A stretch of DNA of 64,000 bases from Gammaproteobacteria bacterium (GTDB taxonomy: Bacteria > Pseudomonadota > Gammaproteobacteria > UBA4575). Positions 24,616 to 40,398 of this stretch are shown here, in pieces (positions within the stretch are counted from its first letter, which is position 1; every line of letters begins with the position of its first letter). Location: contig OZ243969.1 of assembly GCA_965214675.1 (NCBI GenBank), positions 1,797,511 to 1,861,510 of the forward strand. Reading direction: 5' to 3'. Under the pieces are notes generated by a model. It saw nothing but the letters and a program-made list of their open reading frames with translations. It was not told where the DNA came from and ran no database searches. The translations under genes were made by a program, and so were the position numbers.

Positions 24616-24691
24616 GGCCAGGTAGCTCAGTCGGTAGAGCAGTGGACTGAAAATCCTCGTGTCGGTGGTTCGATTCCGCCCCTGGCCACCA
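24616..24691 (+). tRNA. tRNA-Phe (GAA)
   Basis: 76 nt GGCCAGG...CCTGGCC-ACCA, D loop AGTCGGTA, anticodon loop CTGAAAA, T loop TTCGATT. Confidence 0.97.
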
Positions 24692-24692
24692 T
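24647..24692 (+). repeat. att direct repeat copy 1 (46 bp, tRNA-Phe 3' half)
   Basis: Identical to 34489-34534. Confidence 0.93.
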
Positions 24693-24933
24693 TAAATCAG
24701 TTAGTTATAAAAATTTTGTTTCTAATAGAGTCGATAGTTTTGATTTTCCACCATTCTTCCACCAACTAAATTTATTATTCGGGTTCAATGGTACATTGAA
24801 CCGCGGACTCACATTATTGATTGTTTATAAACTTTCCCACATGGCTACGGCCAACAAGGATGTAAAATTGCGGGCATGCGCTAACCTAAAAAACTGTGGT
24901 TGGATCTCTAACAAGACAATGTAATATTTCATT

Positions 24934-25338
24934 TTAATAAGCTCCAGATTTCATCACATCTGCCACTGTTGTGTATGTGATAGTCCATGCTTCTCTAGTT
25001 TCAGGTGTGAATTCATCTTTTAAACCCTTTTCTAGGGTCCAAAGTAATGCTTCACCAACTTTGTCATAATCTTCAGCTTTAACGCCATACGAGACATGTT
25101 TGTTACCTAATTCTTTGATTGGATCTAATAAAGGTTCTAAATCATCAAGGCTATTTACTGCAAGTGTGATCATTTGCATGAGTTTTTTCCCTTGTTCTTT
25201 CATATCGCCTTTGAAATAGGGTTTAACTTCTGGGTAAATTTCAAATAAACGGGTGTAGAACATATCAGCAGCCACTTCGCTTATAGGGGTTACTTTTGAC
25301 CAAGAATTTTTAACAAGCTCTTTTTGTTCTGGTGTCAT
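24934..25338 (-). CDS. single-domain globin
   Basis: FYTRLF (B10 Tyr), PYF (CD1), EQGKKL (E7 Gln), LGNKH (F8 His), YDKVGEALLWTL. Confidence 0.92.
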   Translation of the reverse strand: MTPEQKELVKNSWSKVTPISEVAADMFYTRLFEIYPEVKPYFKGDMKEQGKKLMQMITLAVNSLDDLEPLLDPIKELGNKHVSYGVKAEDYDKVGEALLWTLEKGLKDEFTPETREAWTITYTTVADVMKSGAY

Positions 25339-25730
25339 TATTTTTCCTTTTTTATGTTGATATAGTGTTGAGCAAGTTCAGTCATATAGTCTACAGCTGC
25401 TTTTACTTCTTCATCGGTTAATGATTCGTTACCGCCTTTCGCTGGCATCATAGAATCATCTGGACCAAAAAATCCTTCTATAGCATGCGTATAGAGTATT
25501 TCAGTTTCTTGCTCTAAACGTTTTTCCCAATCTCCTGGAATTAATGGGTTTGGGGAATCCGCTATTCCGTATGCATGGCAGTTTTCACATGTATCTAGCC
25601 AAATTGAGCGTCCATGCTCCAAGTGAGTTCCTTCAAACTTGATGTATTCAGTCTTTTCAGCATGCAATACATTGTTTAAAAGTACGCATGCTGTAAATAT
25701 AAGGATTGTTGTTGGTTTAAGCTTAGCCAC
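25338..25730 (-). CDS. cytochrome c5-type monohaem cytochrome
   Basis: Signal peptide, CENCH, HAIEGF...MMPAKGG...LTDEEVKAAVDYM. Confidence 0.9.
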   Translation of the reverse strand: MAKLKPTTILIFTACVLLNNVLHAEKTEYIKFEGTHLEHGRSIWLDTCENCHAYGIADSPNPLIPGDWEKRLEQETEILYTHAIEGFFGPDDSMMPAKGGNESLTDEEVKAAVDYMTELAQHYINIKKEK

Positions 25731-26331
25731 TAACTGGAATACGTATTACTACGCCACCCATTACGTCGCCGACTTTGAAATCATCTTTAGGTGTATCTTT
25801 ATGTCCGTTATGACAGCTTGCGCAAACAGGTGCTACTGCGGTGTCAGCATAAACAGCAGTAAAGTACGTAACTCCACCCAACTCTTCTGTGGTGTAGTAA
25901 TTTTGTCCTTTGTTTTCAGCTACAAACTTTAAACCTTCTTTTTCTGCATTGGTTTCGGGTGCATTTTGCTTATTAATTGGCCATAGCGATTGCAATGAGT
26001 AGCTGAAATTAATGTCTGGATTCTTTTCAGCTTTCTCTGCAACCATTTCCGCACCAAATCGAAACATTTGGGCAGGTAAGACTAATGCTTTATCGTCATC
26101 AAAATGTTCACTGGCTTTAATTACTTTTTCTTTCTTCACTAGCCGGTTCACAATTTTCTTTGTATAAACCGCTCGATCAGAATCCATTACCATATGTAAT
26201 GCATCGGCCATGGTTCTTGGTGTGATGGATGGAATATCACCTGCATCTGATGCCCAGACAATGCTTGCACCTAATGCAGTGACACATACAAAGGATAATA
26301 ATATCCATGACTCCCTTAGTTTACTTTTCAT
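25723..26331 (-). CDS. Tll0287-like (DUF3365-type) periplasmic haem c protein
   Basis: Signal peptide, LPAQMFR, YSLQSLWPINKQNAP, CASCH, FKVGDVMGGVVIRIP. Confidence 0.8.
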   Translation of the reverse strand: MKSKLRESWILLSFVCVTALGASIVWASDAGDIPSITPRTMADALHMVMDSDRAVYTKKIVNRLVKKEKVIKASEHFDDDKALVLPAQMFRFGAEMVAEKAEKNPDINFSYSLQSLWPINKQNAPETNAEKEGLKFVAENKGQNYYTTEELGGVTYFTAVYADTAVAPVCASCHNGHKDTPKDDFKVGDVMGGVVIRIPVSG

Positions 26332-26409
26332 AATTTCCTCTTAGTTTTTAGGTTGGGGGAAGTTAAATTAAAATAGCAATATGTTTTTTCATTTGAGAAT
26401 TTATTTCTT

Positions 26410-27810
26410 TTATTCATTATTCTTTTTATTTAAGTGCTGCTCGTTATCTTTACGCGCAAGATCTGTACTTTCTATATGCACAGTAGGTTGACCATTGAAG
26501 TTGTTGTTTATTAACTTTTGATCAGCTAATGCATTAATCGAAAAGCCCAAGCCATGACAATGCAGGCAGGATGAACGAATCATTTTGCTGTTGGGTGAAA
26601 GGTTTCCGCTTTGGTTATGATCAACCATTACGCGTGTTAACCATTCATTTACATCGTATTCCACTCTTGGCATATGACAGCTGGCGCATGAAACACCTGT
26701 AATAGAGTCATCGTTACTCTTAACTTGTTGTTGCCATAATTCATAATGGGGCGAATCTTTGTAAGCAAGAGTGTGATCATCTGCATGACAATCTAAACAG
26801 CTTTCAACTGCAGCCAAAGTTGTATCGAATCGATGTGCTCCATGGCAACTTACACATGCAAGTTCGTTATGTGCAGCACTTTTATTCATCGGCAGCTGAG
26901 CATCTTTGGGGGTCATGGGAGAAAGCCCGACTGCCAAACGCATTCCATGTTTACCTAATTTAAATCTCTCAACCTCAGTACCATGACAAGTTTGGCAGCT
27001 TTCTATACCTGGGTGGTCATTCCATGCAGAAAGTTCGTTTTGCTCGTTGCGAATTTGATGGCAGCCACTACAATTCACTCCTGCTTTGGAATGTGCGGTT
27101 TCCAACCAGTCACGATGAATGACATTGTCATTGTTAGAGGTTTCAGGTGCATCTACATCGGTTGATTGCAATGTTTGAACAGGATATAAGTCGCGTGGAT
27201 ACCCGAGAATTTCATCCAGTACATTTAAAAATTCGCTTTCAGGTAAATGTGGATTAGGCATGTGCATGGGGGCATCCATATGTTTAACAAGAAAGTCGGT
27301 ATACAAGGCGCGGTTGTTATGAAAGTTATGGCATCCGGAATCTTTACATGTGGTGAACTCCATATCGATGTGTGATGGCCTTTCTTCACCAACATCTTCA
27401 TGACAATGAAAGCAAAAATCTATGGGTTGGGTAAAACCATCTTTTTGTGTGATCTCAGGCTTATGTTCAACATGACAACTTGTACACATGAGTGCATTTA
27501 TTTTTTCTAGTCTATTTGCATTCCTTGGGTCTTTAAATTTTGAGCGAGGGTGTGAATCAAACGGTTTTACGCGTTGATCTCCATGGCAATTGATGCAGGC
27601 TTCTTGTAGCACTTCACCACCTCCAAATGCATTTGTATGGCAACTCTCGCAAGCGTTCTCCAATTGATGGTGACCCGCACTTAAATCCCCAGGCATAAAA
27701 ATAGCTTTGCTTACACCATCTCCTAATAACTGATAAACAAAAATCAGTACCAGTAAAGCACTTGCAATAAACCAAATGGTCCAAATTTTTAAAGTACTTT
27801 TTTTGGTCAT
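26410..27810 (-). CDS. membrane-anchored multihaem cytochrome c (10 CxxCH + 1 CX4CH), C-terminal half HAO-like
   Basis: N-terminal TM; CESCH, CINCH, CTSCH, CFHCH, CKDSGCH, CSGCH, CQTCH, CVSCH, CLDCH, CASCH, CLHCH. Confidence 0.88.
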   Translation of the reverse strand: MTKKSTLKIWTIWFIASALLVLIFVYQLLGDGVSKAIFMPGDLSAGHHQLENACESCHTNAFGGGEVLQEACINCHGDQRVKPFDSHPRSKFKDPRNANRLEKINALMCTSCHVEHKPEITQKDGFTQPIDFCFHCHEDVGEERPSHIDMEFTTCKDSGCHNFHNNRALYTDFLVKHMDAPMHMPNPHLPESEFLNVLDEILGYPRDLYPVQTLQSTDVDAPETSNNDNVIHRDWLETAHSKAGVNCSGCHQIRNEQNELSAWNDHPGIESCQTCHGTEVERFKLGKHGMRLAVGLSPMTPKDAQLPMNKSAAHNELACVSCHGAHRFDTTLAAVESCLDCHADDHTLAYKDSPHYELWQQQVKSNDDSITGVSCASCHMPRVEYDVNEWLTRVMVDHNQSGNLSPNSKMIRSSCLHCHGLGFSINALADQKLINNNFNGQPTVHIESTDLARKDNEQHLNKKNNE

Positions 27811-27822
27811 ATAAATTCACTT

Positions 27823-29841
27823 TTAATACCAGTAGCTTTTTAAAATATGCCAAGCCAGTAAAACTGGTACAGGCCAAAAAAGAAAAATATGCCAAAGTAC
27901 TGATAGCCGTCTCACGCGTGTACTAGATGCATTACTAATACGATGTTCAATACCAATTAAGCCAGTAGAGATAGCGCCAATAAATAACATGCCAGTAAAA
28001 CTGAGCATTAAAAGAAAACTTAACCCGTTTCCTAAGCGGAACCCCGTATGCGCAATCAAACCAAGAATAACAAGCACACCGAGTGCAATATGAAACATGC
28101 GCCAGAACTCAAACTTTCCTAGTTTGTCAAAAGCTCGAATTCGTTTGCGTAATGAAACTAACAGTCCAACCGTGAATAGACCTAAAATTGTAAAACCAGA
28201 AACTTGCTTATTAAATTGTTCTCTCCATAACATATCCCAATGCCATTCGTGTTGAACAGATGTTGCATAAGGAATTGCTGGGGCAAAGAAAAACAATAAT
28301 GTAGCCAGCAAGGCAAAGCTGGAAAATCCAATTAATGTTTTATGCATTGATGTAGGTTCGGATATGCTTTGGTTACCTAATAGGTCTTGCACAAGTGGTT
28401 TGCATGAGCCACATACTGTGCTTGCACCTGTTTTTTTAGAAACTTCTTCAAGTTTGCAAGTGCCTGCTGAGATGGCACTTTCAATGGATCCTTTTGTTAC
28501 CCCCATGCACTGACAGACCAATGCATGAGATGGCCATGCGCTTACACCTTGGCTAACTTCTTCTGACCAAACATTTCCTGTGTTTATAAATCGAATGATT
28601 TGCCAAGGGAAAATATATTCATTTTTACCTATTAGGGTTTGTAGTCGAACGGTTTCTCCCCAATTGCCAAGTCCAATTGCGCCTTTTAGGCGATAGCGGT
28701 GGACTAATATTTTTCTGTAAACGCCTTTTTTGTCATCAAAGTATTTATACGTTTTTCCATAGTGTGATATTTCATTGACCCCTATCGGGCCCATGCTAAA
28801 CACTTGTGTACCTACAATTTTTAAGCGCGATGCAGCGATTGAGCCTGCATAGTTATTTACAACTTTAAAAATATTTGCGGCTGCTACTGATGCTTGTTCT
28901 AATCCAGGTGTAACTAACCCATAAACTTTGTTTTGATGTTCTGCACATTCGCCAATTGCATATATATTTCTATTCGATGTTTGCATTGCATTGTTCACGG
29001 TTATGCCGCGAGAAAATGCAAGTCCAGCATTTTTAGCTAGACTAATATTTGGACGAATTCCTGTTGCAACAATTAGTGTATCGCACGTAAGTTCCTTTCC
29101 GGAACGAAGTCGAATCCCTTTTAATCTTTCGTTAACTAATACTTCAACAACTCCGTCACCAATAATGACGTTAATCCCTAGTGATTCAATTTCATTTTGT
29201 AATAGCTCTGATGCGTCCTCATCTAATTGTTGGCCTAATAAATGATCTGTGTTTTCTACTAGTGTGACTTTGGTGTTGCCCATTTGCATTGCGCGTGCAG
29301 ATTCAATACCTAATAAGCCACCTCCCAAAACTATGGTGTGATGGCTTCTCGCGCGTCTTGCTAATAATGCATTTGCATCTTTTAAATTTCGAAAGGTATA
29401 TACGCCTGTTGCATGAATACCTTTGATATCAGGCAGGTGTGGGTTAGATCCTGTAGCAAGAACTAACTTAAAGTATGGTTGGGTTTTCCCAGTATTGTCG
29501 GTGACTGTTTGCTTATCAGTATCGATAGATTCAATTTTGTAACCAATTTTTTCAGTTACATTGTGTAATGCATTTTTTTCAAGTGGCTGTAGTAATGTTT
29601 CCCAATTAATTTCACCCGCAAGCCAAGAAGATAATTGAACGCGATTATATGTCTCATACTGTTCTTCTCCGTAAATGACGATTGGGGTACTTGATTTGTG
29701 CTCCAACAGCTCGCGAACTACTCGCATGCCGACTGGACCGTTACCAATTATTACAATTGGCAACGGTTCAATCTCAGCATTGTCGCAGTACTGAGGGCCT
29801 ATTATATTTTCAGCTTGTTTATGAAAATTATTTTTTTTCAT
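27823..29841 (-). CDS. NirB/NasB-like FAD/NAD(P)H oxidoreductase + BFD [2Fe-2S] + C-terminal membrane domain
   Basis: IIGNGPVG, LGGGLLGIE, YAIGECAEH, CQC...CGSC; five hydrophobic helices with two Hx13H pairs; no sirohaem domain. Confidence 0.85.
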   Translation of the reverse strand: MKKNNFHKQAENIIGPQYCDNAEIEPLPIVIIGNGPVGMRVVRELLEHKSSTPIVIYGEEQYETYNRVQLSSWLAGEINWETLLQPLEKNALHNVTEKIGYKIESIDTDKQTVTDNTGKTQPYFKLVLATGSNPHLPDIKGIHATGVYTFRNLKDANALLARRARSHHTIVLGGGLLGIESARAMQMGNTKVTLVENTDHLLGQQLDEDASELLQNEIESLGINVIIGDGVVEVLVNERLKGIRLRSGKELTCDTLIVATGIRPNISLAKNAGLAFSRGITVNNAMQTSNRNIYAIGECAEHQNKVYGLVTPGLEQASVAAANIFKVVNNYAGSIAASRLKIVGTQVFSMGPIGVNEISHYGKTYKYFDDKKGVYRKILVHRYRLKGAIGLGNWGETVRLQTLIGKNEYIFPWQIIRFINTGNVWSEEVSQGVSAWPSHALVCQCMGVTKGSIESAISAGTCKLEEVSKKTGASTVCGSCKPLVQDLLGNQSISEPTSMHKTLIGFSSFALLATLLFFFAPAIPYATSVQHEWHWDMLWREQFNKQVSGFTILGLFTVGLLVSLRKRIRAFDKLGKFEFWRMFHIALGVLVILGLIAHTGFRLGNGLSFLLMLSFTGMLFIGAISTGLIGIEHRISNASSTRVRRLSVLWHIFLFWPVPVLLAWHILKSYWY

Positions 29842-29914
29842 GTAAAAAAATTCACACCTACATTTCTGTATAGGTATGACTTTGTTGTCTAAATAATTTG
29901 TTTGAATTTAATAA

Positions 29915-29931
29915 AGCAAGATCGATGCCAA
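29915..29931 (-). promoter_or_regulatory. sigma54 promoter of the oxidoreductase-cytochrome operon
   Basis: Minus strand TTGGCATCGATCTTGCT fits TGGCA-N6-TTGC; NtrC-like site TGAATCAGTTTGGTGCA at 30045-30061. Confidence 0.8.
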
Positions 29932-30189
29932 TTTTTTATTATCAAGATAAATATATGAAATTATTTATGTTAATTCCGCTTTTGCTTTATTAATTAAAAA
30001 ATTTCAAATATTAAAATGATTACGCTCTATTTGAGCACGCTGGATGAATCAGTTTGGTGCAAAAATTGCATCTCTCTTACTGAATGCCGGGTGCATTCTT
30101 TTGTAAAAATCCTGGGTTTGAAAAGCATGCGCGTGAAACTGGGCTTGCAGAACGTACACAAGCTGGCGTATTAGCAAATATTCACTAAA

Positions 30190-30615
30190 GGGCATTCGGG
30201 CGGCTGTAGGTAAAGACCCATAGACACGGAAGTTCTCCTGTCACACCCGTTGGATCTCACCCTGTAGCCACGCATATCGATGCCGATACGCATCGATATA
30301 CCGGACCATTACTTCAGTTTGCAGTCGAGCTCCGCCTGCGCGAAAAAAGCCGAAGCGGTCCCCAGAATTTCATTCGCACGACGCAACTCCCGAACCTCCT
30401 TCTCCAGGGCCTGCAAGCGACTGGATCCGTCCGGTACCACCACTCCTTGTACACCTTCTCGCCCTTGCGCACCTAGTCCGCAACGTCTTCGGACTGCAGC
30501 CCAGCGTCGCAGCTACCGACAGTATCCCTGACCACTCCGATGGATGCTCCTCGCGACCCGTGCTCACCAGGCGCACCACTCTCTCTTTGAACTCCGATAA
30601 ACCCGGTACAGTTCA
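30190..30615 (-). mobile_element. degenerate IS3-family (IS51/IS629-like) fragment
   Basis: Terminal TGAACTGTACCGGGTTTATCGGAG read from 30615; OrfA remnant VRLV...[20 protein letters not shown] and [23 protein letters not shown]; GC-rich relative to the island. Inner end is approximate. Confidence 0.8.
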
Positions 30616-30617
30616 CC

Positions 30618-30720
30618 CGCACTAAAATCGAACACGAGTGCTTATTTTGAGTGCAAATATATTTGCAAGTACCCGAAATCATTAATAAATGAACTAAAAA
30701 AAGTTGGCAAGAAAATTGCT
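30618..30720 (+). promoter_or_regulatory. NtrC-like sites and sigma54 promoter of nrt operon
   Basis: CGCACTAAAATCGAACA (30618-30634), TGCTTATTTTGAGTGCA (30639-30655), TTGGCAAGAAAATTGCT (30704-30720). Confidence 0.8.
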
Positions 30721-30776
30721 ATTAATATTTAACGATTGGAAAAAAATTAAGTTGTGAGCTGTAAGGCTTGGCAAAA

Positions 30777-30830
30777 GACAAAGGTGTCAAATTATGTTCG
30801 TGAATACGCGTCGCATAAGACACCTTTTTT
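30777..30830 (+). terminator. leader terminator overlapped by ANTAR-type hairpin (NasR/NasT antitermination element)
   Basis: GAC-AAAGGT-GTC hexaloop hairpin whose AAAGGTGTC also pairs with GACACCTTTTTT at 30819-30830. Confidence 0.7.
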
Positions 30831-30875
30831 ATCGCAGGAAACTGAACAAACTTTATATAACATCAGGAGATTAAA

Positions 30876-32258
30876 GTGCTGGATAGCAGACTAGGAAAAA
30901 TCAAACAGTTTGGTGTGGCATGTCTATTAATAGGATTTGCTCTTTTCAATAGTGTTGCCTATGCAGAACTAGGTGAGCCAGAGAAAGAAGATTTAAAGTT
31001 TGGTTTCATCAAACTGACCGACATGGCCCCCATTGCAATTGCATATGAGAATGGTTATTTCGAAGATGAAGGTTTATATGTAACGATTGAAGCTCAAGCA
31101 AATTGGAAAGTGCTTCTTGATGGTGTGATTGATGGTCAATTGGATGGCGCCCACATGCTTGCAGGTCAACCGCTTGCAGCAACAATTGGTTTTGGAACAA
31201 AAGCTCATCTCATTACTCCATTTTCAATGGATTTGAATGGTAACGGGATTACAGTATCGAATGATATTTGGGCACAAATGAAGCCTAATATTCCAAGAAT
31301 GGAAGATGGTCGACCCGTTCACCCGATCAAAGCAGATTATTTAAAACCTGTAGTAGAGAAATATAAAGAAGAAGGTAAGCCATTTAATATGGGAATGGTA
31401 TTCCCGGTGTCTACGCATAACTATGAACTACGTTATTGGTTAGCTGCTGGAGGTATACACCCAGGATACTATGCGCCACATAAAGGTGATATCACAGGTC
31501 AAATTGATGCTGATGCATTGCTTTCTGTAACTCCACCACCACAAATGCCTGCAACATTAGAGGCGGGAACAATTTATGGATATTGTGTGGGTGAACCGTG
31601 GAATCAACAAGCTGTTTTCAAAGGTATCGGTGTTCCTGTAATTACAGATTACGAAATATGGAAAAACAATCCTGAAAAGGTTTTTGGTATTACAGCAGCG
31701 TTTGCGGAAAAGTATCCTAACACTACTATTCGTTTAACACGCGCATTAATACGTGCTGCTATATGGCTAGACGAAAATGATAATGCAAATCGTCCTGCTG
31801 CAGTAAAAATTCTTTCACAGTCAAATTATGTTGGTGCAGACTACGATGTAATTGCAAACAGCATGACTGGTACATTTGAATATGAAAAGGGCGACAAAAG
31901 AGAAATTCCTGATTTCAATGTTTTCTTTCGTTATAACGCAACTTATCCTTATTACTCTGATGCAATTTGGTATTTAAGTCAGATGCGTCGTTGGGGGCAG
32001 ATTGCTGAAGATAAATCAGATGATTGGTATAAGGTAATTGCGGCAAAAGTATATCGACCTGATATTTATAGTAAAGCCGCAATGTCGCTTATCGATGAAG
32101 GTTTAGCGGATGCAGAAGGGTTCCCAGATTTTGAATCAGAGACAGGTTTTAAACCACCACAGCCAGAATTTATTGATGAGATTACTTTTGATGGTTCAAA
32201 ACCAAATGAATACTTAGAAAAGTTTTCAATTGGTTTAAAAGCAGGCGATAAAGTTTAA
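30876..32258 (+). CDS. nrtA: CmpA/NrtA-family nitrate/nitrite ABC substrate-binding protein
   Basis: [59 protein letters not shown]. Confidence 0.9.
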
Positions 32259-32311
32259 GTCGATTGGGGAAAAAGGTTTAACTTTTCACAAACTTATTGA
32301 GCTATAGAGAC

Positions 32312-33307
32312 ATGTCTAACAGTGCATTAATACATAAAATAAGTGCTAATTCTGAACTTTCGCTTGGTTTGGTGTCGTTTTTTTTAAACGCATTTCATCA
32401 AATCGTAATACCAATACTTGGGATATCAATTTTCTTATTGCTGTGGTCATTTGCTGCAAAAAATGTTGAGACATCATTAGGAAATTTTCCTGGTCCTGGA
32501 GAGGTTTGGAAGCAATTTGGCGGTCTTTATAGTGAGTATAAAACTGAACGAGGTAAGGAAGATGCGTTCTATCAAAGGTTAGAAGAGCGCAATGCAAAAA
32601 AATTGGCTAAGAACCCTGATTATGTACCTAAGAAACGTAAATATACAGGTAAAGAAACCTTTCTTGACCAGATCTTTACTAGTTTAAAAACCGTAATGTG
32701 TGGATTCTTGCTTGCAGCTATTATTGCAATTCCACTTGGCATCGCGATTGGATTAAGTAAAACGTTAAATACTTCAGTGAATCCAATCATTCAGATATTT
32801 AAACCTGTATCACCTTTAGCTTGGCTGCCGTTAGTTACCATGGTGGTTAGTGCATTATATGTTTCTGACAATCCAATTGTTCCAAAGTCGTTTATTAATT
32901 CGATGATTACTGTAACGCTTTGTTGTCTATGGCCAATGGCAATCAACACCTCAGTGGGAGTTGCGTCAATTAATAAAGATTTAGTAAATGTAAGTCGAGT
33001 ATTAAAACTACCTCCGCTTAGTCATGTAAGAAAAATCGTAATACCAGCATCGGTACCCAGCATTTTCACAGGTATGCGTTTATCTCTAGGAATCGCATGG
33101 ATGGTGCTTATCGCGGCAGAGATGTTGGCTCAGAATCCCGGATTAGGAAAATTTGTATGGGACGAATTCCAAAATGGAAGCTCCAACTCATTAGGAAGAA
33201 TAATGGCTGCAGTAGTTGTTATTGGATTTATTGGGTTTTTGTTAGATCGTGCAATGCTCCAGATTCAGCGTTTTGTATCTTGGGATAAAGCCTCTGCAAC
33301 ACGCTAA
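32312..33307 (+). CDS. nrtB: nitrate ABC transporter permease
   Basis: KPVSPLAWLP, FTGMRLSLGIAWMVLIAAEML, GLGKFVWDEF. Confidence 0.9.
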   Translation: MSNSALIHKISANSELSLGLVSFFLNAFHQIVIPILGISIFLLLWSFAAKNVETSLGNFPGPGEVWKQFGGLYSEYKTERGKEDAFYQRLEERNAKKLAKNPDYVPKKRKYTGKETFLDQIFTSLKTVMCGFLLAAIIAIPLGIAIGLSKTLNTSVNPIIQIFKPVSPLAWLPLVTMVVSALYVSDNPIVPKSFINSMITVTLCCLWPMAINTSVGVASINKDLVNVSRVLKLPPLSHVRKIVIPASVPSIFTGMRLSLGIAWMVLIAAEMLAQNPGLGKFVWDEFQNGSSNSLGRIMAAVVVIGFIGFLLDRAMLQIQRFVSWDKASATR

Positions 33308-33348
33308 TTATTTTTAAATTGTTAATTTCGGTAACTAGAGCCCTAGTT

Positions 33349-34203
33349 ATGAATAATGTAATTCTTGATATCAGCGATATCGATATGGAGTTTCCAACGC
33401 CTAAGGGGCCATTTACTGCGCTTAAAAAAATCGATTTAAAAGTTTCAAAAGGTGAGTTTGTGTCACTTATTGGGCATTCCGGTTGCGGTAAGTCCACAGT
33501 GTTAAACATTGTAGCTGGTCTTTATCAAGCAACACGTGGTGGTGTAGTGCTAAGTGGTAAAGAGGTCACATCACCGGGCCCTGAACGTGCAGTGGTATTT
33601 CAAAATCATTCATTGTTACCTTGGTTGACGGCCTATCAGAATGTTGAATTGGCAGTTAAACAAGTATTCAAGAAAACAAAATCAAAAATAGAGTTAAAAG
33701 AATGGATCGAGCATAACTTGAGTTTGGTGCATATGGACCATGCAATGCACAAACGTCCGGATGAGTTATCTGGTGGGATGAAACAAAGGGTGGGAATTGC
33801 AAGAGCGCTATCGATGCAGCCGGAAGTTCTGCTCATGGATGAGCCATTTGGCGCATTGGATGCACTTACGCGTGCATATATGCAAGAGACGTTAATGGAA
33901 ATTCAAAACGAACTTAAGAATACCGTAATTATGATAACGCATGATGTAGATGAGGCTGTATTGTTGTCAGATAGAATTGTAATGATGACTAATGGTCCAT
34001 CTGCAAAAATTGGTGAGATTCTTGAAGTTAACCTTGAACGCCCAAGAGATCGAATTTCTTTGGCAGAAACACCAGAGTATTCTAAGTTGCGTCACGCAGT
34101 ACTCAGTTTCTTATATGAAAAACAAAGAAAAGTAGAAAATATATCGGGCCAACAACGTAAGACACCAGCCCAAGCTACATTAAAAAATAGCGCAGTTGCC
34201 TAG
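33349..34203 (+). CDS. nrtD: nitrate ABC transporter ATP-binding protein (NrtC/D type)
   Basis: GHSGCGKST, VFQNHSLLPW, LSGGMKQR, MDEPFGALDALTR, MMTNGP. Confidence 0.88.
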   Translation: MNNVILDISDIDMEFPTPKGPFTALKKIDLKVSKGEFVSLIGHSGCGKSTVLNIVAGLYQATRGGVVLSGKEVTSPGPERAVVFQNHSLLPWLTAYQNVELAVKQVFKKTKSKIELKEWIEHNLSLVHMDHAMHKRPDELSGGMKQRVGIARALSMQPEVLLMDEPFGALDALTRAYMQETLMEIQNELKNTVIMITHDVDEAVLLSDRIVMMTNGPSAKIGEILEVNLERPRDRISLAETPEYSKLRHAVLSFLYEKQRKVENISGQQRKTPAQATLKNSAVA

Positions 34204-34488
34204 AAATCATTACTATTCAAGTCCAATAAGAACTTAATCGATATTAACAGGAGACAATATCTATCATTTACAAGAAGAGGATAAGGTTTCTCATATCTTT
34301 GTAATGTCGTTTTGGAAAGTAAAAGTTTTTCGTTTACGGTGCAATGGGCCGCAAACTCCTCGTCCCGCTTTCTGTCGACCGCCTGATCCACCACTTTTGC
34401 ACTCATTTTCAAACACCTTTGGCACTACGATGCCGTGTCTTCGTTTAAGGGTATTTATACGACGTTCAAAAGTAGGTAGGGCATGTTT

Positions 34489-34534
34489 CTGAAAATCCTC
34501 GTGTCGGTGGTTCGATTCCGCCCCTGGCCACCAT
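34489..34534 (+). repeat. att direct repeat copy 2 (partial tRNA-Phe)
   Basis: CTGAAAATCCTCGTGTCGGTGGTTCGATTCCGCCCCTGGCCACCAT, identical to 24647-24692. Confidence 0.93.
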
Positions 34535-39156: not shown

Positions 39157-39396
39157 ATCCTGTCGATGGCTGGTTAATTCGTTGTCCATGGGCTAAGGGG
39201 AATGAAAAAAAGTGCCAGGATGCGTTGTGAGAAATTGAATTCATCACAACCTGCCGAAGATTGTTACGGCAAACAGATCGGCATACGGTTTACTTCTACG
39301 CTCGTCTTATATAGTTGCCCGCTTTGCTCGCAGCATCGTTGGATTCGAGCCCTGCTTTTATATACCCGTAGTATAGTAGAAAATGCGCAGTTACCT

Positions 39397-40398
39397 ATGA
39401 AACATGTTCGTTTCCAGCCCGGTGGACAAGAGATTACCTGCAGGGATGGAGAGACTGTTTTGTCAGCAGCGCTTCGAGAAGGCCTTGTCTTTCCTTACAG
39501 CTGCCGTAAAGGAAATTGCGGCGTATGTCAGGCCCGCCTCATATCCGGCAAAATTACCCCAAGTCCTGCACCTGATGAGGACATGGGTGCATATTCTGAC
39601 ACAGGTGAAGGGGTACTGTTGTGTCAGGCGATCCCGCTTACTGACCTGGTTATCAAGGCTCATGAACTCGAAGCACTTGCAGGTATACGAGTGCGCACAC
39701 TGTCATGCCGGGTCCAGAATCTGGAGCCGCTCACTCATAATGTCACTGCATTGACGTTAGGCCTGACGAAAGGTCGAGGTCATCTGGAATTCTGCGCAGG
39801 CCAGTATGTGGATCTCTTGCTGTGGGACAATCGTCGCCGCAGCTATTCAATTGCAAGCGCACCCCAAGAAGCTGATGTGATTGAAGTACATGTACACAGG
39901 ATCCCGGGCGGGCGATTCAGCGAGCAGGAATTTGGCACGATGAAAGCACAGGACCTGCTAGCTATCATCGGTCCTCTGGGAACTTTTTTCCTGCGCGATG
40001 ACCCACGTCCTACGATATTAATCGCTGCCGGCACGGGTTTTGCTCCCATTTCCGCTATGCTGGAAGACCTGCGAAAGCGGGGTATACAAAGGCGGATACA
40101 GTTCTACTGGGAGGTGGTCTCTCGAAAAGACCTGTACCGGCATGAGCAAATTTGCACGTGGGAACGGGAAATGGGCATCAAGTTTATACCCGTGTTGTCT
40201 GCACCTGATTCGGACTGGGAAGGGCGGTGTGGCAAGGTGCATGAAGCCGTGCTGGCTGACCATCCGGACCTGTCAGATATGCAGGTATATGCCAGTGGGT
40301 TGCCGGAAATGATTGCAGCCGTTCGCAAAACATTTCCCCAGCATGGGTTGCGCGCCGATGCACTGTACTGTGAGTCATTTGAATGCGCAGTGGATTAA
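39397..40398 (+). CDS. [2Fe-2S] ferredoxin-FAD/NAD(P)H reductase (CDP-glucoseen reductase-like)
   Basis: YSCRKGNCGVC...LLC, AGQY, RRSYSIAS, AAGTGFAP, YASG.PEMI. Confidence 0.85.
   Translation: MKHVRFQPGGQEITCRDGETVLSAALREGLVFPYSCRKGNCGVCQARLISGKITPSPAPDEDMGAYSDTGEGVLLCQAIPLTDLVIKAHELEALAGIRVRTLSCRVQNLEPLTHNVTALTLGLTKGRGHLEFCAGQYVDLLLWDNRRRSYSIASAPQEADVIEVHVHRIPGGRFSEQEFGTMKAQDLLAIIGPLGTFFLRDDPRPTILIAAGTGFAPISAMLEDLRKRGIQRRIQFYWEVVSRKDLYRHEQICTWEREMGIKFIPVLSAPDSDWEGRCGKVHEAVLADHPDLSDMQVYASGLPEMIAAVRKTFPQHGLRADALYCESFECAVD

Follow-up and report, generated by a model that had tools for sequence, protein, structure and literature searches.

What does a protein do that begins like the large subunit of an NADH-dependent nitrite reductase and ends as a bundle of hydrophobic helices? 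The question is raised by a gene on the minus strand (27823..29841) of a 64-kb stretch of a gammaproteobacterial genome. This whole stretch is referred to as the window and is numbered from its first nucleotide; the host genome is a single contig of 1.87 Mb. The gene, hereafter the fusion gene, codes for a NirB-type FAD/NAD(P)H module, a BFD [2Fe-2S] domain and five membrane helices that putatively form a dihaem-b domain. The answer considered probable is a single-chain flavo-iron-sulfur cytochrome b, in which electrons would pass from NAD(P)H to FAD, to the [2Fe-2S] cluster, to two haems b and from there to an 11-haem cytochrome and small periplasmic haem proteins.

The fusion protein and its histidine pairs

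The fusion gene was delimited and assigned by open reading frame (ORF) calling, Pfam, NCBIfam and AlphaFold2 modelling. Its ORF is uninterrupted and the product counts 672 residues. From the N-terminus, a Pyr_redox_2 FAD/NAD(P)H domain (residues 29-321; 28879..29757, minus strand; Pfam, E 1.1e-52) is followed by a Rubredoxin_C domain (residues 338-407; Pfam) and a BFD-like [2Fe-2S] domain (Pfam Fer2_BFD, residues 441-488; 28378..28521, minus strand), all of them domain types that NirB possesses. The membrane domain (residues 497-672; 27826..28353, minus strand), delimited by hydropathy, alignments and AlphaFold2, takes the place of the sirohaem/[4Fe-4S] domain of NirB. The NirB model TIGR02374 aligns over its positions 1-485 of 794 only and scores 404.4 bits against a cut-off of 578.35 (E 1e-120). 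The fusion protein lacks the C-terminal sirohaem/[4Fe-4S] half, to which model positions 486-794 correspond, and the Pfam scan found no NIR_SIR family in it. The initial annotation, made from the sequence alone, had proposed that the catalytic domain of NirB is replaced by membrane helices, and the point where the match stops agrees with it. A true nirB identity was rejected on three grounds, namely the missing sirohaem half, the score below cut-off and the presence of a separate, complete NirB elsewhere in the host genome (G000:C1:1681387-1683756, 1073.7 bits). NirB-N-like electron-transfer subunits also occur in assimilatory nitrate reductases, e.g. Klebsiella NasC, Bacillus NasB and Bradyrhizobium Flp.

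C-terminal of the BFD domain, a Kyte-Doolittle plot (19-residue window) detects five hydrophobic segments at about residues 502-522, 546-564, 579-598, 605-628 and 646-666, the number first reported for this protein. The membrane domain modelled alone by AlphaFold2 from a 41-row alignment folds into five long helices with a predicted local distance difference test score (pLDDT) of 94 and a predicted template modelling score (pTM) of 0.87; the model of the full-length protein from a 73-row alignment reaches a pLDDT of 88.5 and a pTM of 0.76. Lysines and arginines number 7 in the loop 565-581 and 4 in the loop 629-645, versus 2 and 1 in the other two loops, which fits a domain with its N-terminus inside (N-in) according to the positive-inside rule. 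Two H-x13-H pairs had been pointed out in the initial annotation and their spacing is exact: H584-IALGVLVILGLIA-H598 on helix 3 (codons 28090-28092 and 28048-28050, minus strand) and H651-IFLFWPVPVLLAW-H665 on helix 5 (codons 27889-27891 and 27847-27849, minus strand). Because of the N-in topology, one histidine of each pair would lie near the cytoplasmic face of the membrane (H584, H651) and the other near the periplasmic face (H598, H665).

The conservation of these residues was examined in three sets of relatives. A word-indexed search seeded on residues 497-672 returned 76 clusters, nearly all of about 660 amino acids and with the same set of Pfam domains, and the 73-row alignment consists of these clusters minus three short or partial ones and the entry of the window itself. 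An exhaustive HMMER search with the membrane domain alone gave 566 representatives at E <= 0.001, and 41 of the shorter of these, 34-49% identical to the query, form the more diverse 41-row alignment. The third set comprises 31 aligned relatives in which the membrane domain is fused to a GPP34 domain (see below). H584, H598, H651 and H665, the four residues proposed from the start as haem ligands, are invariant in 73/73 relatives of the same architecture (identity 39-82%), in 41/41 rows of the diverse set and in all 31 GPP34-fused proteins. Since this invariance holds across three sets, the four-histidine pattern is taken to be beyond chance. In the 73 relatives, the BFD cysteines C443, C445, C477 and C480 are likewise invariant and the GxGxxG glycines of the flavoprotein domain are invariant or nearly so; a fifth histidine of the membrane domain, H633, is variable in the 41-row set. 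In the source records, six of the 76 listed relatives go by 'nitrite reductase (NADH) large subunit', so that the misannotation as nirB that had been anticipated does occur.

The operon, its 11-haem cytochrome and the exchangeable heads

The fusion gene stands at the head of an operon whose genes are separated by 12 and 78 nucleotides (nt) and then overlap by 8 and 1 nt. All are on the minus strand. The cytochrome c gene (26410..27810), which starts 12 nt past the stop codon of the fusion gene, codes for a membrane-anchored protein of 466 residues with an N-terminal transmembrane (TM) helix and 11 haem motifs, i.e. 10 CXXCH and one CX4CH (Pfam, motif scan). It is followed by the genes of a Tll0287/DUF3365-type (sCache_haem) periplasmic haem-c protein of 202 residues (25723..26331; Pfam) and of a monohaem cytochrome c of 130 residues (25338..25730; Pfam), both with a signal peptide. 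The last gene (24934..25338) codes for a single-domain globin of 134 residues without signal peptide, related to the globin domain of Hmp (Pfam, NCBIfam).

This arrangement was compared across 80 loci from species-representative genomes, 40 of which have the membrane domain while the other 40 match only NirB-like N-termini. A multihaem cytochrome is encoded immediately downstream of the fusion gene in all 40 membrane-domain loci, with the pattern of 10 CXXCH and one CX4CH in 36 of them. The Tll0287-type gene is found in 36/40 loci, the four misses lying at contig ends; the Hmp-type globin is present in 27 and the monohaem cytochrome c in 22 of the 40. In the loci of Neptuniibacter and Neiella (L027 12288-14107; L029 12339-13749), a truncated globin (Bac_globin) and a Fer2/FNR-type gene occupy the position of the Hmp-type globin. 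As one globin stands in for the other, a globin function seems to be part of the operon whatever the family. A Fer2 + FAD_binding_6 + NAD_binding_1 reductase gene is also found in the window, at 39202-40398 on the plus strand, some 5 kb outside the genomic island described below; it shares its domain type with the reductase beside the truncated globins of those loci.

Carriers of the operon are alpha-, beta- and gammaproteobacteria, including Hahella sp. CCB-MM4, Neptuniibacter, Neiella marina and Dinoroseobacter. Of 301 Pseudomonadota genomes sampled, 7 contained a match to the membrane-domain profile at E <= 1e-8, and in four genomes the match was strong. In two related genomes (loci L129 and L130), open frames of 275 aa match helices 2-4 of the profile only, and weakly so (E 1e-10 to 1e-12); these may be distant relatives of the membrane domain with another architecture.

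The cytochrome resembles a wire more than an enzyme. All of its 11 haem motifs are invariant in 30 orthologues, in which ten histidines outside the motifs are also invariant and one more, H87, is kept in at least 90%; eleven bis-His haems are therefore possible. In the ESM Atlas, the cytochrome falls in clusters automatically named 'putative nitrite reductase (cytochrome; ammonia-forming)' (0.98). An identity as NrfA was not adopted, as only short NrfA-like stretches were matched among PDB sequences (best E 0.0067).

A complex of the cytochrome with the membrane domain was also predicted. With the 41-row alignment of the membrane domain and a 30-row alignment of the cytochrome as inputs, the interface score ipSAE was 0.77, 0.76 and 0.77 in three runs; of three controls, the best gave 0.00. 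An ipSAE at the level of the runs is attained by 116 of 157 solved complexes and by 2 of 215 mismatched pairs, a comparison that is rough here as custom alignments were used. The runs share at least 96% of their contacts and the partner has a pLDDT of at least 84. In the model, the TM helix of the cytochrome (residues 9-28) packs against helix 5 of the membrane domain, while cytochrome residues 36-41, 54 and 58 (haem-1 motif) and 128-138 (haem-4 motif) lie on the loops 525-531 and 604-608 and on the C-terminus; both loops are periplasmic. The prediction supports docking, and the 11-haem cytochrome is predicted to be the acceptor that an electron exporter would need.

The membrane domain occurs with other cytoplasmic modules. 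Domains were scanned in 27 of 150 listed representatives. In P0089, an EF-hand pair precedes BFD, FAD_binding_6, NAD_binding_1 and the membrane domain, whereas in P0214 three cyclic-nucleotide (cNMP)-binding domains precede the same series; the domain content of these two proteins recalls that of NOX5, in a different order. P0124, P0165 and P0220 consist of the membrane domain alone, and the remaining scanned proteins were fragments or full NirB-type fusions. The initial annotation had contrasted the fusion protein with ferric-reductase and NOX domains joined to an FNR-type module. The glutathione-reductase-fold head of the fusion protein bears this out, but the contrast does not extend to the membrane domain as such, on which FNR-type heads are also found. 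Since two unrelated NAD(P)H flavoprotein folds sit on one membrane domain, NAD(P)H is the likely donor.

A second copy of the membrane domain is encoded in the host genome (G000:C1:455788-456969) in a protein of 393 residues, fused to a GPP34 domain. It is 31% identical to that of the fusion protein and keeps both H-x13-H pairs. Downstream lie genes for an 11-haem cytochrome paralogue, 36% identical, and for a Tll0287-type protein, 54% identical. The module (L131 3789-7130, i.e. G000:C1:455788-459129) has a guanine-cytosine (GC) content of 55.5%, which is native to the genome. The GPP34-headed family counts at least 120 clusters, most of them full-length, which are annotated only as 'GPP34 family phosphoprotein'. 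Judged from gene content, the conserved core is the b domain with the 11-haem cytochrome and the Tll0287-type protein, and the cytoplasmic heads are exchangeable.

Literature searches, which did not extend to preprint supplements, found no published description of the NirB-type fusion or of the operon. The accessible part of the account of the 'undecahaem' uet cluster of Tenderiales mentions no flavoprotein fusion. For a stand-alone sCache_haem protein of Pseudomonas putida, a 2026 preprint reports a potential of +123 mV and weak binding of NO; genes of this stand-alone type are reported to lack an association with signalling output proteins, their function being left open (10.64898/2026.02.01.703092).

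Affinities of the membrane domain and a proposed route of electrons

No Pfam family matches the membrane domain at its cut-off, DUF4405 scoring 15 bits versus 26.7, and Ferric_reduct (PF01794) does not match the fusion protein at E <= 10. When the 41 relatives were scanned singly, sub-threshold matches were obtained to DUF4405 (PF14358) in 20 (best E 6.3e-5), to Ni_hydr_CYTB (PF01292) in 10 and to Ferric_reduct in 8 (best E 1.5e-4); the other recurrent membrane family, Cation_ATPase_C, gave four matches only. These signals lean weakly to dihaem-b families. In a wide structural search, the top membrane protein was the E. coli superoxide oxidase CybB (5oc0_A; Z 10.3, root-mean-square deviation (rmsd) 3.1 over 127 aligned residues). 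It was followed by the hydrogenase-1 cytochrome b (4gd3_A; Z 8.6, rmsd 5.4 over 126 residues) and by STEAP4 (6hcy_C; Z 8.2, rmsd 4.0 over 123 residues). The best ESM Atlas score of the membrane domain, 0.81, is below the level at which a match is counted; the cluster concerned has Fer2_BFD in 34% of its members.

The closest functional parallel is offered by the NOX, DUOX, FRE, STEAP and MsrQ proteins (PF01794), in which electrons flow from cytoplasmic NAD(P)H through flavin and two bis-His haems b to an acceptor outside, as proposed here. In NOX and ferric-reductase domains, the histidine pairs are on TM3 and TM5, about 13 residues apart, and the N-terminus is inside. This generally known pattern recurs in the fusion protein: the invariant pairs are carried by its helices 3 and 5, the N-terminus is predicted inside, and the NOX-like histidine spacing claimed for it is thereby upheld. 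Those proteins have six TM helices against five in the fusion protein, and the dehydrogenase of NOX is C-terminal and of FNR type, whereas that of the fusion protein is N-terminal, has the glutathione-reductase fold and is accompanied by an extra [2Fe-2S] cluster. The proposed acceptor is a multihaem cytochrome c and not O2, Fe(III) or MsrP. With DUF4405, the shared trait is that four central histidines are the most conserved residues of the membrane domain. One purified DUF4405 protein with four central histidines is reported to bind haem b, in a study of cytochromes b associated with flavinylation and ferrosomes (10.1101/2024.03.13.584918). DUF4405 has six helices and ApbE and flavinylated proteins as partners; the domain considered here has five helices, NAD(P)H modules and multihaem cytochromes instead.

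From these elements, the following route can be proposed. NAD(P)H would reduce the FAD of the glutathione-reductase-fold domain, which would pass electrons to the BFD [2Fe-2S] cluster. The cluster would reduce a cytoplasm-side haem b bound by H584 and H651, and this inner haem would in turn reduce a periplasm-side haem b bound by H598 and H665. From the outer haem, electrons would reach haem 1 of the 11-haem cytochrome, held in place by its TM anchor packed on helix 5, and then the two small haem-c proteins of the periplasm, the Tll0287-type one and the monohaem cytochrome. The globin of the operon, which is cytoplasmic, is perhaps kept reduced by the same flavoprotein. Within this scheme, we infer haem binding, the outward direction of electron flow and the physiological acceptor.

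Several observations weigh against the proposed exporter. Foldseek, suggested at the outset as a check on the fold, returned nothing for the membrane-domain model against the PDB at E <= 0.001. In the structural search that placed CybB at Z 10.3, talin helical bundles reached Z 11.1, and since such bundles score as high the CybB match may reflect a mere common arrangement of helices. A profile of the membrane domain found no haem protein among PDB sequences, its sole hit being a cystine/glutamate transporter at the level of chance (E 0.24). Alignment of profiles by hhalign gave a probability of 2% with an MsrQ-like alignment and of 35% (E 4e-4) with a DUF4405 alignment, both targets being possibly noisy as they were built from script-picked ORFs (17 MsrQ-like and 13 DUF4405). 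The GPP34 form keeps the same periplasmic partners with no NAD(P)H module, so another donor, perhaps quinol, must be possible. Finally, no catalytic haem is evident in the cytochrome, given that its histidines suffice for 11 bis-His haems. On the sequence and fold comparisons, the membrane domain is treated as a separate family that would work like the dihaem cytochromes b.

Another donor is the core of the explanation in which the membrane domain would be a quinone-reactive cytochrome b of the CybB, NarI or HyaC type, linking the quinone pool to periplasmic cytochromes, with NADH:quinone or dual NADH/quinol input. We regard it as unlikely, even though the top membrane-protein match in fold is CybB, a dihaem cytochrome b561 known to be quinone-linked, Ni_hydr_CYTB recurs below threshold in 10/41 relatives, and the GPP34-fused paralogue as well as P0124, P0165 and P0220 have no NAD(P)H module and need some other donor. 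No quinone site can be identified from the sequence, and the superposition on CybB takes helices 2-5 in what appears, from the known topology of CybB, to be the opposite membrane orientation. NAD(P)H modules of two unrelated kinds occur as fusions with the domain, and the multihaem cytochrome is always adjacent and predicted to dock on the periplasmic face. The adjacency and the predicted complex also speak against a haem-free anchor or a metal- or ligand-binding module, which would make of the fusion protein a membrane-tethered diaphorase whose partners, e.g. the globin or a nitrate reductase, would be cytoplasmic. The globin of the operon is indeed cytoplasmic, the closest described analogue, the Bradyrhizobium pair of Flp and the globin Bjgb, reportedly works in the cytoplasm throughout, and the membrane domain matches no Pfam family at cut-off. 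Nevertheless, 170 conserved residues are more than a plain anchor needs, the four invariant histidines pair up as H-x13-H twice, at depths that match across the three alignments, and the recurrent weak family matches point to dihaem cytochromes b, which makes the anchor improbable.

That the protein acts as a NirB-type nitrite reductase subunit after all, or that an oxidation in the periplasm sends electrons inward onto NAD(P)+, is very improbable. The match to the N-terminal 485 positions of the NirB model and the name carried by six of the 76 relatives are what favours the former, to be set against the lack of positions 486-794, the score under the cut-off and the full NirB encoded elsewhere in the genome. 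As to inward flow, established bioenergetics would make the reduction of NAD+ through b and c haems an uphill reaction against the membrane potential. The single-chain exporter of electrons from NAD(P)H to the periplasmic cytochromes is thus retained as the probable reading.

The genomic island and a possible link with nitrogen

The operon lies in a stretch with the features of an integrated element. A tRNA-Phe gene (24616..24691, plus strand; RNA scan) has its 3' part (24629-24692) as the left direct repeat, and a copy of this 3' part, 89% identical over 64 nt, forms the right direct repeat at 34471..34534 on the plus strand (repeat search). The operon and the adjacent transporter genes have a GC content of 39%, compared with 48% for the window. 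Because the tRNA-Phe gene and the 64-nt copy of its 3' end bound this low-GC stretch, 24629-34534 is read as a 9.8-kb island integrated at tRNA-Phe. Its content is restricted to the haem operon, an IS3-type remnant and the genes of an NrtA/NrtB/NrtC-type ATP-binding cassette (ABC) transporter (30876-32258, 32297-33307 and 33319-34203, together 30876..34203, plus strand; Pfam), which diverge from the operon. Neither an integrase gene nor a nitrate reductase gene is present in the 9.8-kb island. Between the operon and nrtA, a short high-GC stretch (30263-30680) contains an ALIL pseudoknot, a frameshift element of the IS3 type (30263..30351, minus strand; 45.9 bits versus a gathering score of 50, E 2e-9), and overlapping ORFs rich in arginine and proline; it probably represents the decayed remains of an IS3-family transposase.

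Upstream of the fusion gene, a motif scan located a sigma-54-type -24/-12 element, TGGCAT-N5-TTGCT (29915..29930, minus strand), 74-89 nt before the ATG. This is the sole match to TGGCAY-N5-TTGCW in the 64-kb window, and it is on the same strand as the gene. Among 39 related loci, 17 have a looser motif of the same type upstream, where the background would give 0.06 per 460 nt. The 5' leader also contains, just before the start codon, a terminator-like hairpin with a run of T (29852..29879, minus strand; hairpin scan). The host genome carries rpoN and one gene with an ANTAR domain. These elements suggest that the operon may be regulated by nitrogen status or by antitermination.

As to the physiological role, our best guess, made with lower confidence than the electron route, is that nitric oxide, nitrite or a similar nitrogen oxide is removed or reduced while nitrate or nitrite is being used. 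The closest parallel is the pairing of globin and flavoprotein in Bradyrhizobium, where a narK-bjgb-flp-nasC cluster for nitrate assimilation reportedly encodes a single-domain globin and an NAD(P)H flavoprotein. In both systems, a single-domain globin stands beside a NirB-N-like flavoprotein and is tied to genes for nitrate/nitrite transport; the difference is that here the flavoprotein continues into a putative membrane cytochrome b and is linked with three haem-c proteins of the periplasm. NrtA lies inside the fetched flanks in 12 of 40 loci. Eight loci without NrtA have variable flanking genes and no consistent link with nitrogen, which speaks against such a role.

NAD(P)H-driven transmembrane dihaem conduits are known, NOX being the example, and the NirB-type fusion would be another. 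A wider proposal, which we hold tentatively, as possible rather than probable, is that the five-helix, four-histidine domain, absent from Pfam, forms the core of a new class of modular conduits that carry electrons across bacterial membranes. Its output would be the 11-haem cytochrome and the Tll0287-type protein, its heads would be of NirB type, of FNR type with EF-hand or cNMP-binding domains, or GPP34, and the form with the NirB-type head would play the part of NOX in bacteria, exporting NAD(P)H electrons to periplasmic haems so as to detoxify nitrogen oxides. Were this proposal true, the recurrent labels 'nirB' and 'GPP34 family phosphoprotein' would be corrected, the stand-alone Tll0287/sCache_haem proteins would gain a working context from the operon, and a bacterial parallel to NOX would become available for the study of transmembrane electron transfer. 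Periplasmic multihaem cytochromes of bacteria are normally fed from the quinone pool. A direct wire from NAD(P)H to the periplasm would depart from this; it would cost energy instead of conserving it and would therefore suit detoxification or redox balancing. In the host genome, the NirB-headed form would travel with a nitrate/nitrite transporter as a mobile unit integrated at a tRNA gene, and its position with NrtABC on an island suggests that the trait moves among marine and sulfur-oxidising Proteobacteria.

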